From: a virus
Taxonomy: Duplodnaviria > Heunggongvirae > Uroviricota > Caudoviricetes
Length of the DNA stretch: 8,530 bases
Direction: 5' to 3' (one strand)
IMG/VR virus record: IMGVR_UViG_2690316166_000017
Shown: in pieces, positions 3,239 to 8,530 of the stretch
Numbering within the stretch: position 1 is the stretch's first letter
How the letters are laid out: the number at the start of each line of letters is the position of its first letter
Translations under genes and position numbers: made by a program
The notes under the pieces: generated by a model
The model's database searches: none
Told to the model about the DNA's origin: nothing
Seen by the model: the letters and a program-made list of their open reading frames with translations, nothing else

Positions 3239-3876
3239 GCGCAGAACTCATGCGACTGCTGAGCAATATCATCCGCACCGGGATCATCTCTGAAGTTGAT
3301 GAGGAATCCTGGTGCGTGCGCGTTCGCAGCGGCGAACTGGAAACAGGCTGGCTGCGCTGGAACACCACGCGCGCGGGAGACTTCAACGTGTGGTTTCCGC
3401 CATCACCAGGCGAACAGGTGGCAATTGCCTGCATCGGCGGCAACCCGGAAACCGCCATGATAATCNNNNNNNNNNNNNNNNNNNNNNNNNNNNNNNNNNN
3501 NNNNNNNNNNNNNNNNNNNNNNNNNGGCAGCCTGTGGAGTGATGCCATTCCGGCACCCGGCAAAAGCCTGAAAGAAATCGTGGTCAGCGCGCCGGACGGC
3601 GCGGTGTTCCGCTACGACGCGGACGCAGGCGCACTGAGCGCAAGCGGCATGAAAACGGCCACTTTGCAGGCATCCATCAGCGTGACACTGAACACGCCTG
3701 TCGTGGAATGCACAGACCTTCTGAGAACAGCGACGCTTGACGTCACAAAAGGGGGAACGATGAGCGGCAATATCACGCACAGCGGCGGCGATTTCACCTC
3801 AAACGGCATCACAGTGCATACGCATAAGCACGGTGGCGTTAAAGGTGGCAGCGATTCGACAGGAGGCCCGCAGTGA
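3235..3876 (+). CDS. V: Baseplate central spike / baseplate assembly protein V (P2 gpV-like, gp5/VgrG-type spike)
   Basis: 213-codon ORF, ATG 3235 to TGA 3874-3876, with codons 3466-3525 masked in frame. N-terminal ...LLSNIIRTGIISEVD... and C-terminal ...KGGTMSGNITHSGGDFTSNGITVHTHKHGG... align with the P2 gpV sequence as I recall it (NMIRTGIIVETD...; QKGGTMRGNIEHTGGELSSNGKVLHTHKH). HxH motif near the C-terminus. SD GGAGG upstream; start overlaps the upstream stop. Confidence 0.9.
   Translation: MSAELMRLLSNIIRTGIISEVDEESWCVRVRSGELETGWLRWNTTRAGDFNVWFPPSPGEQVAIACIGGNPETAMIIXXXXXXXXXXXXXXXXXXXXGSLWSDAIPAPGKSLKEIVVSAPDGAVFRYDADAGALSASGMKTATLQASISVTLNTPVVECTDLLRTATLDVTKGGTMSGNITHSGGDFTSNGITVHTHKHGGVKGGSDSTGGPQ
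3861..3866 (+). promoter_or_regulatory. Shine-Dalgarno (AGGAGG) for gpW-like gene
   Basis: Perfect AGGAGG lies 6 nt upstream of the GTG start at 3873, inside the 3' end of the V coding sequence. Confidence 0.65.
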
Positions 3877-4226: not shown

Positions 4227-5231
4227 ATGCCTGCCGTTGACCTTTCCCAGTTACCGGAACCCGCCATCATCGCGGAGCCTGACTTTGAGGCAATTCTGGC
4301 TGACACAAAGGCCATGATGATTGCAGCTTATCCCGCCGAACAGCGTGAAGTCGTCTCCGCCGCACTGGAACTGGAATCGGAACCCCTGAACGTTATCGCT
4401 CAAACCATGTCGTTTCGTGAAATGCTGTTACGCCAGCGGGTCAATGAGGCCGCACGCGCCTGCATGTTGAGCCACAGCGCCGGAACAGACCTGGACAACC
4501 TCGCGGGCAATATGAACACAAAGCGCCTGGTTATCACTCCGGCAACGGATACCACCGACGTGGTGATGGAGAACGACACCTCGCTGAGACTGCGGGCGCA
4601 GCGGGCGTATGACGGCCTGAGTGTTGCAGGCCCGTCAGGCGCATACGAGTATTTTGCCCGCAGCGCCAGCGGTCTGGTGCGCGATGCGCGGGCCATCAGT
4701 CCGTCTCCGGCAAATGTGACGGTTTCCATCCTGTCCACTGAGGGCGACGGCACAGCAACGGAGGCGTTGCTTAATACCGTTCGCGCCGTTCTGAATGCAG
4801 AGGATACCCGCCCGGTGNNNNNNNNNNNNNNNNNNNNNNNNNNNNNNNNNNNNNNNNNNNNNNNNNNNNNNNNNNNNNNNNNNNNNNNNNNNNNNNNNNN
4901 NNNNNNNNNNNNNNNNNNNNNNNNNNNNNNNNNNNNNNNNNNNNNNNNNNNNNNNNNNNNNNNNNNNNNNNNNNNNNNNNNNNNNNNNNNNNNNNNNNNN
5001 NNNNNNNNNNNNNNNNNNNNNNNNNNNNNNNNNNNNNNNNNNNNNNNNNNNNNNNNNNNNNNNNNNNNNNNNNNNNNNNNNNNNNNNNNNNNNNNNNNNN
5101 NNNNNNNNNNNNNNNNNNNNNNNNNNNNNNNNNNNNNNNNNNNNNNNNNNNNNNNNNNNNNNNNNNNNNNNNNNNNNNNNNNNNNNNNNNNNNNNNNNNN
5201 NNNNNNNNNNNNNNNNNNNNNNNNNNNNNNN
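4227..5231 (+). CDS. J: Baseplate protein J (P2 gpJ-like); 3' end lies inside masked block 4818-5336, end coordinate is an estimate
   Basis: ATG at 4227, 3 nt after the W stop. The visible 197 codons (MPAVDLSQLPEPAIIAEPDFEAILADTKA...ESEPL...RQRVNEAARA...GLSVAG..GAYEYF...SPSPANVTVSILS...EDTRPV) align along their length with P2 gpJ as recalled (MPIIDLNQLPAPDVVEELDFESILAERKA...RQRVNEAARAVML...GLSVAGSVGAYQYH...SPSPACVTISVLS...EDVRPV). The true stop is hidden; the end is inferred from where the gpI-like gene must start and could be up to ~100 nt earlier. The track's continuation to 5441 is a masking artefact. Confidence 0.8.
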
Positions 5232-5791
5232 NNNNNNNNNNNNNNNNNNNNNNNNNNNNNNNNNNNNNNNNNNNNNNNNNNNNNNNNNNNNNNNNNNNNN
5301 NNNNNNNNNNNNNNNNNNNNNNNNNNNNNNNNNNNNGGTCGCCGGACACCTGCCCGGTGCATCTGCTGCCTTATCTCGCCTGGGCGTTTTCCGTTGACCG
5401 CTGGGATCGCAACTGGCCGGAAGAGACAAAGCGACAGGTGATTCGTGATGCATGGCTGATACACCGACACAAAGGAACCATCAGCGCCCTGCGACGGGCC
5501 ATTGAGCCGCTGGGATACCTCATTCGCGTGTCTGAGTGGTGGGAGTTCAACGGCGAACCCGGAACATTCAAGATTGATGTTGGCACGCTGGACAGTGGCG
5601 TGACGGAGGAAATGTATCTGGAAATGGAGCGGTTGATTGCTGATGCCCGCCCGGTCAGCCGCCACATNNNNNNNNNNNNNNNNNNNNNNCACATGACAGG
5701 GCTGAATATCATTCAGGAGATTCAGGGAGATATTTTCGCGGCAGCAGCAACTTACGACGGTGAAGTCATTACCATTTATCCGGACGATTAA
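5228..5791 (+). CDS. I: Baseplate / tail formation protein I (P2 gpI-like); 5' end inside masked block, start coordinate is an estimate
   Basis: Frame-2 reading from 5339, SPDTCPVHLLPYLAWAFSVDRWDRNWPEETKRQVIRDAWLIHRHKGTISALRRAIEPLGYLIRVSEWWE...MERLIADARPVSRH...GLNI...YDGEVITIYPDD, aligns with P2 gpI as recalled (NPDTCPANLLPWLAWAFSVDRWDEKWPEATKRAVIRDAYFIHCHKGTIGAIRRVVEPLGYLINVTEWWE...). Stop TAA at 5789-5791. About 37 N-terminal codons are hidden; the start is estimated from the alignment. A 22-nt masked block (5668-5689) lies inside the gene, in frame. Confidence 0.8.
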   Translation, partial: XXXXXXXXXXXXXXXXXXXXXXXXXXXXXXXXXXXXXSPDTCPVHLLPYLAWAFSVDRWDRNWPEETKRQVIRDAWLIHRHKGTISALRRAIEPLGYLIRVSEWWEFNGEPGTFKIDVGTLDSGVTEEMYLEMERLIADARPVSRHXXXXXXXXHMTGLNIIQEIQGDIFAAAATYDGEVITIYPDD

Positions 5792-5793
5792 GC

Positions 5794-8328
5794 ATGAGTA
5801 CCACAACACGAAAATTTAAAACCATTATCACCGATACGGGTGCAAAAAAATTAGCGCAGGCAACCGCGCCAGATGGGAAACCTGTCCGCCTGACACATAT
5901 GGCCGTGGGTGACGGCGGCGGTACTTTACCCACGCCAGACAGTAAGCAGACCCGTCTTGTGCATGAGGTGTGGCGACATACCGTTAATCGCGTCACCCTG
6001 GACGCAACACATCAGAACCACATTATTGCGGAGCTGGTTATTCCTCCTGAAACGGGCGNNNNNNNNNNNNNNNNNNNNNNNNNNNNNNNNNNNNNNNNNN
6101 NGTGTGTTTGATGAGCACGGCGATTTGATCGCGGTAGGCAATACTGCCGAAAGTTACAAGCCAACCGTTGCCGAAGGATCCGGACGTGCACAAACATNNN
6201 NNNNNNNNNNNNNNNNNNNNNNNNNNNNNNNNNNNNNNNNNNNNNNNNNNNNNNNNNNNNNNNNNNNNNNNNNNNNNNNNNNNNNNNNNNNNNNNNNNNN
6301 NNNNNNNNNNNNNNNNNNNNNNNNNNNNNNNNNNNNNNNNNNNNNNNNNNNNNNNNNNNNNNNNNNNNNNNNNNNNNNNNNNNNNNNNNNNNNNNNNNNN
6401 NNNNNNNNNNNNNNNNNNNNNNNNNNNNNNNNNNNNNNNNNNNNNNNGGCAGAGGATATTGCATCCGCCGTGGCGCTTGAGGATGCAAGTACGACGAAAA
6501 AGGGGATAGTACAGCTCAGCAGTGCGACCAACAGCACTNNNNNNNNNNNNNNNNNNNNNNNNNNNNNNNNNNNNNNNNNNNNNNNNNNNNNNNNNNNNNN
6601 NNNNNNNNNNNNNNNNNNNNNNNNNNNNNNNNNNNNNNNNNNNNNNNNNNNNNNNNNNNNNNNNNNNNNNNNNNNNNNNNNNNNNNNNNNNNNNNNNNNN
6701 NNNNNNNNNNNNNNNNNNNNNNNNNNNNNNNNNNNNNNNNNNNNNNNNNNNNNNNNNNNNNNNNNNNNNNNNNNNNNNNNNNNNNNNNNNNNNNNACCAA
6801 CAGCACGTCTGAAACGCTGGCAGCGACACCAAAAGCCGTTAAGGCAGTAATGGATGAAACGAACAAGAAAGCCCCATTAAACAGCCCGGCACTGACCGGA
6901 ACGCCAACAACACCAACTGCGCGACAGGGAACGAATAATACCCAAATCGCAAGCACGGCTTTCGTTATGGCTGCGATTGCCGCACTTGTAGACTCTTCGC
7001 CTGATGCACTGAACACACTGAACGAGCTGGCGGCGGCGCTGGGCAACGACCCGAATTTTGCGACCACCATGACTAACGCGCTTGCGGGTAAGCAACCGAA
7101 AGATGCCACTCTGACGGCGCTGGCGGGGCTTGCTACTGCGGCAGACAGGTTTCCGTATTTTACGGGGAATGATGTCGNNNNNNNNNNNNNNNNNNNNNNN
7201 NNNNNNNNNNNNNNNNNNNNNNNNNNNNNNNNNNNNNNNNNNNNNNNNNNNNNNNNNNNNNNNNNNNNNNNNNNNNNNNNNNNNNNNNNNNNNNNNNNNN
7301 NNNNNNNNNNNNNNNNNNNNNNNNNNNNNNNNNNNNNNNNNNNNNNNNNNNNNNNNNNNNNNNNNNNNNNNNNNNNNNNNNNNNNNNNNNNNNNNNNNNN
7401 NNNNNNNNNNNNNNNNNNNNNNNNNNNNNNNNNNNNNNNNNNNNNNNNNNNNNNNNNNNNNNNNNNNNNNNNNNNNNNNNNNNNNNNNNNNNNNNNNNNN
7501 NNNNNNNNNNNNNNNNNNNNNNNNNNNNNNNNNNNNNNNNNNNNNNNNNNNNNNNNNNNNNNNNNNNNTAACCATCCTTACTGGATGTGCAAAGGCTCAT
7601 GGGCTTATGCAAATAATAAGGTCATTACAGATACAGGTTGCGGAAATATTTGTCTTGCAGGTGCTGTGGTGGAAGTTATTGGCACTCGCGGCGCAATGAC
7701 CATACGCGTTACCACGCCGAGCACGTCCAGCGGTGGCGGAATTACTAACGCTCAATTCACTTATATTAATCATGGTGATGCTTACGCTCCTGGCTGGCGA
7801 CGAGACTACAACACGAAAAATCAACAACCTGCATTTGCTTTAGGGCAAACAGGAAGCACTGTCGGAAATGATAAAGCTGTTGGCTGGAACTGGAATAGCG
7901 GGGTCTATAACGCAAACATTGGTGGCGCATCGACATTAATCCTCCACTTCAATATGAATACGGGGAGCTGCCCTGCTGTACAGTTCCGCGTGAATTACAG
8001 GAACGGCGGTATTTTTTATCGTTCAGCGCGTGATGGTTATGGCTTTGAAGCTGACTGGTCAGAGTTTTACACCACAACCCGCAAACCCTCTGCGGGAGAT
8101 GTTGGTGCATATACGCAGGCAGAATGTAACTCAAGGTTTATTACAGGTATTCGCCTTGGTGGTCTGTTATCTGTTCAGACATGGAATGGTCCCGGATGGT
8201 CTGACAGGTCAGGTTATGTTGTTACCGGTTCCGTTAACTCAAACAGAGATGAACTAATTGATACAACTCAGGCAAGGCCAATTCAGTATTGCATTAATGG
8301 GACGTGGTATAACGCGGGGAGTATTTAA
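5794..8328 (+). CDS. H: Tail fibre protein (P2 gpH-like N-terminus and shoulder, lambdoid Stf-like repeat region, divergent C-terminal receptor-binding domain); interrupted by four masked blocks, with apparent frame changes at two of them
   Basis: ATG at 5794, 2 nt after the I stop. The N-terminus (...[26 protein letters not shown]...[13 protein letters not shown]) matches P2 gpH as recalled ([27 protein letters not shown]...[14 protein letters not shown]). Later segments ([22 protein letters not shown]; [20 protein letters not shown]; [44 protein letters not shown]) match the P2 H / E. coli side-tail-fibre shoulder. The C-terminal ...[15 protein letters not shown] resembles the P2/Mu fibre tip (IQKYINGTWYN). 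Stop TAA at 8326-8328. The reading frame is 1 for 5794-6058, 2 for 6102-6538 and 1 for 6796-8328, so the continuous-ORF interpretation assumes the hidden blocks restore frame. Confidence 0.8.
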
Positions 8329-8330
8329 CG

Positions 8331-8530
8331 ATGATGCACTTAAAAAACATTTCTGCTGGTAATCCTGAAACAAAAGAGCAATACCAGCTAACGAAACAAT
8401 TTAACATCAAATGGCTTTATACAGAGGATGGGAAAAACTGGTATGAGGAACAAAAGAACTTTCAGCCTGATACGTTGAAAATGGTCTATGACCACAACGG
8501 CGTTATTATTTGTATTGAAAAGGATGTTTC
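8331..8530 (+). CDS. Tail fibre assembly chaperone (Mu gpU / P2 gpG / Tfa family), 5' part only; runs off the window end
   Basis: ATG at 8331, 2 nt after the H stop, with GGGGAG ~10 nt upstream. Translation [66 protein letters not shown] has the N-terminal signature of Mu U / P2 G-type chaperones as I recall them ([19 protein letters not shown]...W...[15 protein letters not shown]). It is not in the ORF track because no stop falls inside the window. Confidence 0.8.

Follow-up and report, generated by a model that had tools for sequence, protein, structure and literature searches.

A tail-fibre locus that very probably forms part of a PinB/bix-type invertible segment in a P88-like prophage

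The tail-fibre locus at the right end of the 8,530-nt viral DNA analysed here (the window, IMG/VR record IMGVR_UViG_2690316166_000017) raises the question of whether it is a fixed locus of the P2 H/G type or one arm of an invertase-operated switch whose other half lies beyond the window end. The fibre gene starts at 5794, and the ORF at 6850..8328 (+ strand) represents its 3' portion. The constant part of the gene (5794..7177, +), comprising the N-terminal region and shaft, is P2-H-type, contains blocks of N and would lie outside the invertible segment. It is followed by a masked block of 391 N (7178..7568, +), by a variable C-terminal receptor-binding tip of the Mu S'/P7 Sv type, here called tip A (7569..8328, +), and by the 5' 200 nt of a tail-fibre assembly chaperone gene of the Mu U' type (8331..8530, +), which begins with an ATG at 8331 and continues past the window end; tip and chaperone would both lie inside the segment. 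A sequence-only reading of this DNA had proposed an invertase-switched tail-fibre locus of "Gin/Cin/Pin-type". The switch is supported by the identity of tip and chaperone, by the crossover sites, by the invertase and by the occurrence of both orientations in relatives. As to type, a Din-family switch is borne out, though not a generic one: it appears to be specifically PinB/bix (the Shigella B segment), with Mu Gin/G as its nearest counterpart. In our reading, window 7178-8530 very probably represents the left ~38% of a ~3.08-kb PinB/bix-type invertible segment in a P88-like prophage. Tip A continues the reading frame of the constant part and would thus be in the ON state.

Residues coded by 7570-8328 are identical to the C-terminus of Mu S' at 249 of 252 positions (98.8%); tip A also gives a weak Pfam match to gp37_C. 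At the DNA level, 7569-8530 displays 95-97% identity to S'-U' of Mu and D108 and to Sv-Ua of P7, and the tip A DNA is 100% identical to a silent copy in FDAARGOS_943 that adjoins a recombinase. The 66 readable residues of the chaperone match Mu U' at 64 positions and Mu U at 44; in relatives the protein is 177 aa long (tfa-177), and the full-length homologue is recognised by Pfam Caudo_TAP (E = 7e-37). The earlier description of the chaperone as "Mu U type" is therefore correct and can be narrowed to the U' (G-minus) type. The accompanying view that the readable sequence "cannot discriminate" between a switched and a fixed locus was too pessimistic, since DNA nearly identical to the readable tip and chaperone occurs within the G and C invertible segments, while P2 H/G is of the other tip type.

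Relatives were collected by exact look-up of gpW, which yielded ten near-identical prophages. Three of these loci (L007, L012 and L013) are collinear with the window at 100%, apart from 6448-6538, and supply the downstream half; in a megablast search of complete E. coli genomes, the best collinear match of the whole window reached only 96.5%. The readable stretches of the constant part are 100% identical to L001 and L006-L013, and the N-terminus is that of the L001 fibre, which carries Pfam Phage_tail_fib and Phage_fiber_2. The 91 nt at 6448-6538, in the fibre shaft, are the sole readable stretch absent from these otherwise ~100% matching relatives: they occur in none of the ten gpW-matched prophages and have no exact match in species-representative genomes, and the two IMG/VR contigs that contain them exactly share that mosaic stretch alone with the window. 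The same 91 nt are present in 3,440 genomes, within lambdoid stfR-type fibre genes, and are therefore not diagnostic.

We rejected the possibility that the lengths of the N blocks are true indels, because genes with flanks 100% identical to intact homologues would then be out of frame. No nucleotides (0 nt) take the place of the 60 N at 3466-3525 in any relative, and the 43 N at 6059-6101 stand for 21 nt, so that a false frameshift appears. Likewise, the interval homologous to the 391-N mask at the end of the constant part is 274 nt in relatives; by homology, the mask would cover the last ~75 nt of the constant part, the left crossover site (bixL) and the first ~200 nt of tip A. In L007, L012 and L013, window position 7177 corresponds to 12713 and 7569 to 12988, and a 26-bp site at 12777-12802 falls between them, beginning 64 nt beyond window 7177 and within the fibre gene. 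The mask length is not faithful to the relatives' interval, so that two coordinate ranges are given for bixL in the window, 7241-7266 if one starts from the left edge of the mask and 7358-7383 if one starts from the right edge. We expect the masked DNA to hold TTATCGAATACCTCGGTTTACAGGAA ~64 nt past 7177, followed by the tip A flank ACGGTAAATCAGG. The sequence-only reading had placed the constant/variable junction inside 7178-7568; this is where it falls in every relative and, through the 26-bp site in the three matching loci, where it would fall in the window.

In the relatives bixL reads TTATCGAATACC-TC-GGTTTACAGGAA and codes for VIEYLGLQET within the fibre ORF; for the window itself its presence follows from this homology, as the site falls in the masked block. 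Its partner lies ~3.08 kb away on the opposite strand, and the pair reads TTCCTGTAAACC-GA-GGTATTCGATAA and TTCCTGTAAACC-GA-GGTTTTAGATAA. Both are 26-bp sites consisting of 12-bp half-sites around a 2-bp core, inverted with respect to each other and sharing the same core dinucleotide. They correspond exactly, as reverse complements, to the published bixL and bixR (Table 3 of PMC3241671). Relative to Mu gix, the two bix sites have one and two mismatches, with the central dinucleotide and the inner half-site shared. A scan of species-representative genomes with a degenerate gix/bix 26-mer returned no match, a result that is no measure of how widespread the system is.

Beyond the point where the window ends, the matching prophages contain the rest of tfa-177, an inverted chaperone gene (tfa-175), an inverted promoterless second tip (tip B), the second 26-bp site and an invertase gene. 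The gix-like site with two 12-bp half-sites at the junction, the oppositely oriented tfa'/fibre-tip pair and the serine invertase downstream, all predicted from the window sequence, are thus present in the 100%-matching prophages, the invertase following the inverted pair. The two cassettes stand in opposite orientation, tip A with tfa-177 being of the Mu S'/U' type and tip B with tfa-175 of the Mu S/U and P2 H/G type; both chaperones are Caudo_TAP proteins. Three loci (L008, L010 and L015) are deletion derivatives that have no invertase and carry a tail gene (gpU in L008) immediately after tfa; these retain tip B and not the tip A of the window. A locus lacking the site, the inverted pair and the invertase, with tfa running straight into structural genes, had been named as evidence against a switch, and is not what this prophage type displays; its nearest resemblance is to these deletions, which keep the other tip. 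The host phage of the relatives has a sheath-to-gpU operon convergent with the fibre operon and, judged from sequence, is a P88-like (Xuanwuvirus) P2-family prophage, not P2 proper. Owing to this convergence, the suggestion that the downstream space might hold accessory cargo, as in P2-like prophages, does not apply here.

The invertase encoded by the 100%-matching relatives is a protein of 195 aa with Pfam Resolvase (E = 1e-50) and HTH_7 domains, and it matches the Gin crystal structures 4m6f and 3uj3 at E ~1e-100. It is 81% identical to Gin overall and ~99% identical over the catalytic domain, with two substitutions in aa 1-120 and an identical VRVSTNDQ motif; identity to Cin is 72%. The C-terminal DNA-binding domain has diverged from that of Gin, and its recognition helix is nearer to that of Hin. 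Over nt 1-90 the gene agrees with Mu gin at every position (100%), and the annotated cin enhancer corresponds to nt 19-90. In databases the protein is named only "recombinase family protein" or "DNA invertase".

Both orientations of the segment, the occurrence of which had been put forward as a check, were found by comparing near-isogenic genomes. The prophages of E. coli O145 RM9467-C1 and RM9872 share a left flank of 5,902 nt with 0 mismatches; their right flanks differ by a single 1-nt gap, and the 3,305-nt segment in between is an exact reverse complement. Window-type prophages likewise occur in opposite orientations (L009 and L006 versus L013 and L007). The exchange falls exactly at the 26-bp sites, the outer half-sites being stationary and the inner flanks swapped. 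Among complete E. coli genomes, the tip-A-expressed junction was counted in 106 and the tip-A-silent junction in 129, a ratio of ~1:1 over 235 genomes. Furthermore, Goldberg et al. 2014 (PMC4272514) showed by sequencing that both orientations of a fibre segment coexist in clonal cultures in P2-like prophages of EPEC E2348/69, and the same study used PCR to confirm inversion at the e14 locus.

These observations bear directly on the other ways in which the locus could be explained. A fixed P2-type H/G locus with a relic crossover site, and with no partner site, second cassette or invertase, has a precedent in P2 H itself, which has a single site with one mismatch to bixL and neither partner site nor invertase, and the fibre constant part of the window is P2-H-like. 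However, the tip and chaperone of the window are of the Mu S'/U' type and not P2 H/G, all seven of the tip A carriers among the ten loci examined (which share the same gpW and the same fibre constant part) also possess the second cassette and the invertase, and 235 complete E. coli genomes carry one of the two junctions, which makes a fixed locus very unlikely. Still less probable is the notion that the orientation differences reflect assembly error or RecA-mediated recombination between inverted repeats instead of a site-specific invertase. The segment ends are indeed inverted repeats, perfect over 22 nt in the window-type prophage and over 70 nt in the O145 prophage. Repeats of this size should be far too short to confuse complete long-read assemblies, and RecA exchange usually requires a length equal to or greater than theirs. 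Moreover, the 26-bp site at which exchange occurs is identical to the target of a characterised recombinase; a Gin-like invertase, itself intact, and a putative enhancer region lie alongside; the two junctions are nearly balanced over the 235 genomes; and inversion in P2-like prophages was detected inside clonal cultures (PMC4272514). A multi-site shufflon with more than two alternative tips, of the Min/p15B or the three-repeat EPEC P2-like kind, would have as its precedent the one EPEC E2348/69 P2-like prophage reported to contain three repeats and four variants (PMC4272514). It is equally improbable: no third crossover site was found in the loci, which have two sites each even at up to 7 mismatches in the 26-mer or up to 2 in the inner 14-mer, and just two tip/chaperone cassettes are present.

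A more serious contender is that the element is the same and the switch is dead here, frozen with tip A ON, either through an IS600-type insertion that splits bixR or through loss of the half that encodes the invertase. All three of the 100% collinear loci (L007, L012 and L013) contain an IS600-type element that interrupts the outer half-site of bixR at a distance of 4 bp from the crossover dinucleotide, and L007 and L012 have a further IS inside tfa-177; derivatives lacking the invertase exist as well (L008, L010 and L015). The split site keeps GGTT of the outer half-site (5 nt with the matching first IS base), so that the intact outer sequence GGTTTTAGATAA is replaced by GGTTTGAGGTGT, with 8/12 matches counting the IS end. 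The switch may consequently be impaired in the lineage of the window, for which the closest relatives are probably Shigella. On the other hand, the identical IS, in the same position and orientation, is found with tip B ON in L006 and with tip A ON in L007, L012 and L013, in flanks at least 99.97% identical, most simply explained by inversion after insertion. In addition, the four IS-bearing loci share an intact invertase ORF of identical sequence, the known deletion derivatives hold tip B and not the tip of the window, and the window does not derive from any of these loci. We thus consider a dead switch possible but doubtful. It is a tentative idea that PinB can still invert by using a bixR split 4 bp from the crossover point, with an outer half-site that is largely IS end; if true, Din invertases would accept a defective half-site in vivo, or else the IS end would act as a mimic of a half-site.

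The data presented above are consistent with a model, for a PinB/bix-type segment, in which the constant fibre part lies outside the segment and would be transcribed with the late baseplate operon (V-W-J-I-H), while bixL forms part of the reading frame where the constant and variable regions meet. The segment would comprise two divergent cassettes, each a fibre C-terminus with its own chaperone, with bixR and the gene for the 195-aa serine invertase just past its far end. Invertase dimers would bind both sites, assisted by an enhancer within the 5' end of the invertase's own gene, which is Fis-dependent in Gin, Hin and Cin. Cleavage at the central GA/TC dinucleotide and strand rotation would flip the segment and fuse the other tip and chaperone to the constant part, presumably giving mixed progeny with two receptor specificities and hence bet-hedging on host range. 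Catalysis by this invertase and the effect of the switch on host range are suggested by homology; the enhancer region is conserved in sequence, and Fis/enhancer dependence may be expected. By analogy with the relatives, we infer that the downstream half is still present in the genome from which the window comes.

The system is already known and was described decades ago; as a textbook Din-family switch it adds no new principle, and its importance lies mainly in annotation and interpretation. RefSeq labels its parts "tail fiber protein", "hypothetical protein" and "recombinase family protein", which do not indicate a switch. An assembly records a single orientation out of a mixed population, and host-range prediction from the annotated fibre misses the second specificity, also for phage P88.

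The closest known system is the PinB invertase with the invertible B segment of Shigella boydii (GenBank D00660; Tominaga et al. 1991, via PMC3241671). Both 26-bp sites are letter-identical to its published sites, and the D00660 interval listed for these matches ~3.08 kb, a likeness in sites and segment size. The content is Mu-G-like, and the P1 annotation gives 93% identity of its U'/U region to D00660; the P88-like P2-family prophage context comes from the present comparison and not from the 1991 paper. Escherichia phage P88 (Xuanwuvirus P88, KP063541) has the same gene order, including the convergent sheath-to-gpU operon, and the same bixL and bixR. Its invertase, annotated "DNA invertase", differs by 3 aa, and its tip A, 96.7% identical, is silent in the record but expressed in the window; the P88 host-range paper makes no mention of inversion.

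The Mu G segment shares the order of site, S-type tip and U, inverted U' and S'-type tip, site and invertase. Tip A (98.8% to S'), the chaperone (64/66 to U'), the invertase gene over its first 90 nt (identical to gin), the central dinucleotide and the inner half-site are likewise Mu-like. In contrast to Mu, the outer half-sites differ from gix by 1 and 2 nt, the window-type invertase has a diverged C-terminal DNA-binding domain, the constant fibre part is P2 H-type and not Mu S, and the host is a P2-family myovirus instead of a transposable phage. The P1 C segment (Cin/cix) and the e14 P segment (Pin) follow the same Din-family logic as this locus: a crossover site lies where the constant and variable parts of the fibre meet, the alternative tips are accompanied by chaperones, and the invertase gene holds an enhancer, which in the present locus is putative. 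Differences are that identity to Cin reaches only 72%, that the core of the cix sites is AA and their half-sites are not the same, and that the P1 C segment measures 4.2 kb (4,256 bp in the P1 annotation) compared with ~3.08 kb.

P2 H/G has a homologous fibre constant part, a tip and chaperone ~87% identical to tip B and its tfa, and a relic bixL-like site (1 mismatch) at the same place. As had been pointed out from the window alone, P2 has homologous H/G without inversion: it has no second site, second cassette or invertase. There, the gene after G is 900 nt long and annotated "hypothetical protein"; we take it to be Z/fun, and a co-oriented sheath gene comes next. The phase-variable P2-like prophages of EPEC E2348/69 (PMC4272514) resemble the present locus in that both orientations of a fibre segment occur in a P2-like setting.

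The window covers the late region of a P2-family prophage, with the gene order head completion, lysis genes, R/S, V, W, J, I, fibre and chaperone, broken by several blocks of N (83-2811, 3466-3525, 4818-5336, 5668-5689, 6059-6101, 6198-6447, 6539-6795 and 7178-7568). The constant part of the fibre gene extends from 5794 to its last readable base at 7177, where 391 N hide the constant/variable junction; the fibre C-terminus (tip A) is readable at 7569-8328, and the chaperone gene starts with the ATG at 8331 and runs past the window end, leaving 66 readable residues. The N blocks do not keep the true lengths, as shown by relatives with 100% identity to the window on either side of a block: where the window has 60 N at 3466-3525, all relatives have 0 nt, and the counterparts of the 43 N at 6059-6101, the 391 N at 7178-7568 and a block of 2729 N measure 21, 274 and 2646 nt, respectively. 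These wrong lengths produce spurious long ORFs, the 43-N block introduces a spurious frameshift in the fibre gene, and coordinates within or spanning the masks should not be trusted. The readable 91 nt of fibre shaft at 6448-6538 are missing from all near-identical relatives found; the stretch is 99-100% identical to lambdoid stfR-type ("prophage tail fiber N-terminal domain") genes and occurs in 3,440 E. coli genomes, which suggests an additional Phage_fiber_2-type repeat, gained through mosaic exchange in the source genome.

The identity of the tip and chaperone is already informative. The readable tip matches the Mu S' C-terminus at 249 of 252 residues, and the chaperone matches Mu U' at 64 of 66 readable residues versus 44 of 66 for Mu U, upholding the observation from the sequence-only reading that the chaperone is of Mu U type. 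That reading also held that the readable sequence could not discriminate between an invertible locus and the non-inverting P2 H/G genes. The readable DNA does in fact discriminate better than this, since 7569-8530 shares 95-97% identity with Mu and D108 DNA from the S'-U' half of the G segment and with Sv-Ua in the C segment of P7, and the P2 H/G tip is the counterpart of the other cassette rather than of the window's tip. The Mu-S'/U'-type cassette is the one that is ON in the window.

E. coli FDAARGOS_943 carries all readable parts of the window at ~100% identity, except 6448-6538. Its tip and chaperone lie ~2 kb off on the opposite strand, as a promoterless fragment that adjoins a "recombinase family protein" and faces a second chaperone and a full-length fibre. 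An exact-protein look-up with gpW gathered ten near-identical prophages (L006-L015). Three of these (L007, L012, L013) show 100% collinearity with the window and encode a 656-aa fibre with tip A at its C-terminal end. Next come a 177-aa chaperone (tfa-177) and, in inverted orientation, a second chaperone of 175 aa and a promoterless tip B, then a 195-aa protein with Resolvase and HTH_7 domains; the inverted chaperone/tip pair and serine invertase sought downstream of the chaperone are present in these relatives. L006, L009 and L011 are in the opposite state: tip B ends their 678-aa fibre, and tip A is silent. In L014 tip A (98.6% identical) is the silent one, and the invertase and both chaperones are there too; no fibre gene is called, and the interval is ~0.8 kb longer than in the other loci. 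L008, L010 and L015 are deletion derivatives: the silent cassette, the invertase-side crossover site and the invertase are all gone, and the tip-B fibre and its chaperone are followed almost directly by gpU (about 14342-14572), with a 63-aa tfa-177 remnant retained in L015; their switch is frozen with tip B ON. Identical layouts are found in more distant relatives, JNE120393 (96%) and phage P88. Silent promoterless tips (L001 5874-6617; L002 9614-10729) appear in RefSeq as CDSs named "tail fiber protein" or "hypothetical protein" that start at internal ATGs, and the annotation of these two segments marks neither the invertible segment nor its sites or enhancer.

A 26-bp site is present in exactly two copies per locus, on opposite strands and ~3.08 kb apart. 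The fibre-gene site, TTATCGAATACC-TC-GGTTTACAGGAA, encodes ..VIEYLGLQET.. and maps, from the relatives, 64 nt beyond 7177 in the window frame, within the masked block where a crossover site had been predicted; the invertase-side site is TTATCTAAAACC-TC-GGTTTACAGGAA. Reverse-complemented, the two match letter for letter the bixL and bixR sites tabulated for the Shigella boydii PinB/B-segment system (PMC3241671). They differ from Mu gix at 2 (fibre-gene) and 1 (invertase-side) outer half-site positions, while sharing its inner half-site and central dinucleotide; gix itself falls at the annotated boundaries of the G segment. When genomes in the two states are compared, the outer half-sites are fixed and the inner flanks are exchanged (...GGTAAATCAGG for tip A, ...GGTAAACAAGG for tip B), placing the exchange point within the site. 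A third crossover site was absent from each locus even at relaxed stringency, indicating a two-state switch; a shufflon was rejected on the same count.

Over its full length the invertase shares 81% identity with Gin, from which it departs at just two positions in residues 1-120, and it shares 72% with Cin; its top solved-structure matches are Gin structures (4m6f, 3uj3; E about 1e-100). The C-terminal HTH has diverged from Gin, and its recognition helix, GIGISTIYRY, is nearer that of Hin (GIGVSTLYRY). In L001 (5005-5592, minus strand) the invertase is thereby a mosaic of Gin-like residues 1-120 and a diverged C-terminal DNA-binding domain; JNE120393 and the two O145 strains described below have a 199-aa variant whose C-terminal tail differs. 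Since the gene and gin share 100% identity over nt 1-90 and the annotated recombinational enhancer of P1 cin is nt 19-90, we infer that the enhancer is conserved.

Inversion itself is recorded in closely related genomes. E. coli O145 RM9467-C1 (5,385,895 bp) and RM9872 (5,385,924 bp) carry, at the same coordinates, a prophage ~96% identical to the window and encoding the 199-aa invertase. Their left flanks (5,902 nt) show 0 mismatches, the 3,305-nt segments between the core dinucleotides are exact reverse complements, and the right flanks (5,901 nt) differ solely by one 1-nt gap. Among window-type prophages, L009 and L006 have the segment inverted relative to its orientation in L013 and L007, and the flanks agree at 99.97% identity or more. 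In complete E. coli genomes, the constant part-site-tip A junction was found in 106 and the invertase side-site-tip A junction in 129, a near-1:1 ratio expected from random sampling of a freely switching segment. Both orientations have been shown experimentally to coexist in clonal cultures for P2-like prophages of EPEC (PMC4272514). The O145 segment is longer (3,305 nt), with 70-nt perfect terminal inverted repeats and another, longer alternative tip (798-aa fibre); it shows cassette replacement within one switch scaffold.

An IS600-type element (ends TGAGGT..., 3-bp GTT target duplication) interrupts bixR within its outer half-site, at 4 bp from the core, in all of L007 (17119-18410), L012 and L013 (equivalent positions). 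L006 has the identical insertion in position and orientation (15852-17140) with the segment in the other orientation, and all four share an identical, intact invertase ORF. Either inversion went on after the insertion, leaving the element in both segment orientations, or the same insertion occurred twice or was moved by recombination. A frozen switch in the window's own copy is less likely than not. L007, L012 and L013 are probably Shigella, as they are IS-rich and fall outside the E. coli collection. A second IS copy in L007 and L012 (14163-15578) splits the expressed chaperone tfa-177, truncating it to 137 aa, and probably disables tip A fibre assembly.

A classical Din-family switch is the best explanation of the element. 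The late operon would transcribe the constant part of the fibre, and the cassette (tip and chaperone) facing it would be the one expressed. Dimers of the PinB-type invertase on bixL and bixR, acting with the enhancer inside the invertase's own gene, would carry out the strand exchange at the GA/TC core that inverts the segment. In Mu, the LPS core that is recognised differs between S'/U' and S/U fibres: E. coli K-12 is the host of G(+) particles, and G(-) particles have Citrobacter, Shigella sonnei and Enterobacter as hosts. Because of this difference, induced progeny of the present prophage may be a mix of two host ranges. The invertase-switched fibre locus proposed from sequence alone is supported, with the two-site switch, inverted cassette, invertase and both orientations all present in relatives. 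Its value lies mainly in annotation, as public records leave the switch unmarked; a P88 host-range study does not mention it.

P2, in contrast, retains in H a single relic site, TTATCGAATATCTCGGTTTACAGGAA (L018 3473-3498), with 1 mismatch to bixL and the same codons (VIEYLGLQET), and lacks a partner site, second cassette or invertase. After its G gene come a 900-nt gene with the annotation "hypothetical protein", which we take to be Z/fun, and then a co-oriented sheath gene. In the P88/Xuanwuvirus layout, shared by the present prophage, the sheath-to-gpU and fibre operons instead converge, and the segment and invertase occupy the space between them, so that the accessory cargo position suggested from P2-like prophages does not apply. 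The comparisons support identification of the element as a PinB/B-segment (Mu-G-type) fibre switch, already described, in a P88-like prophage.
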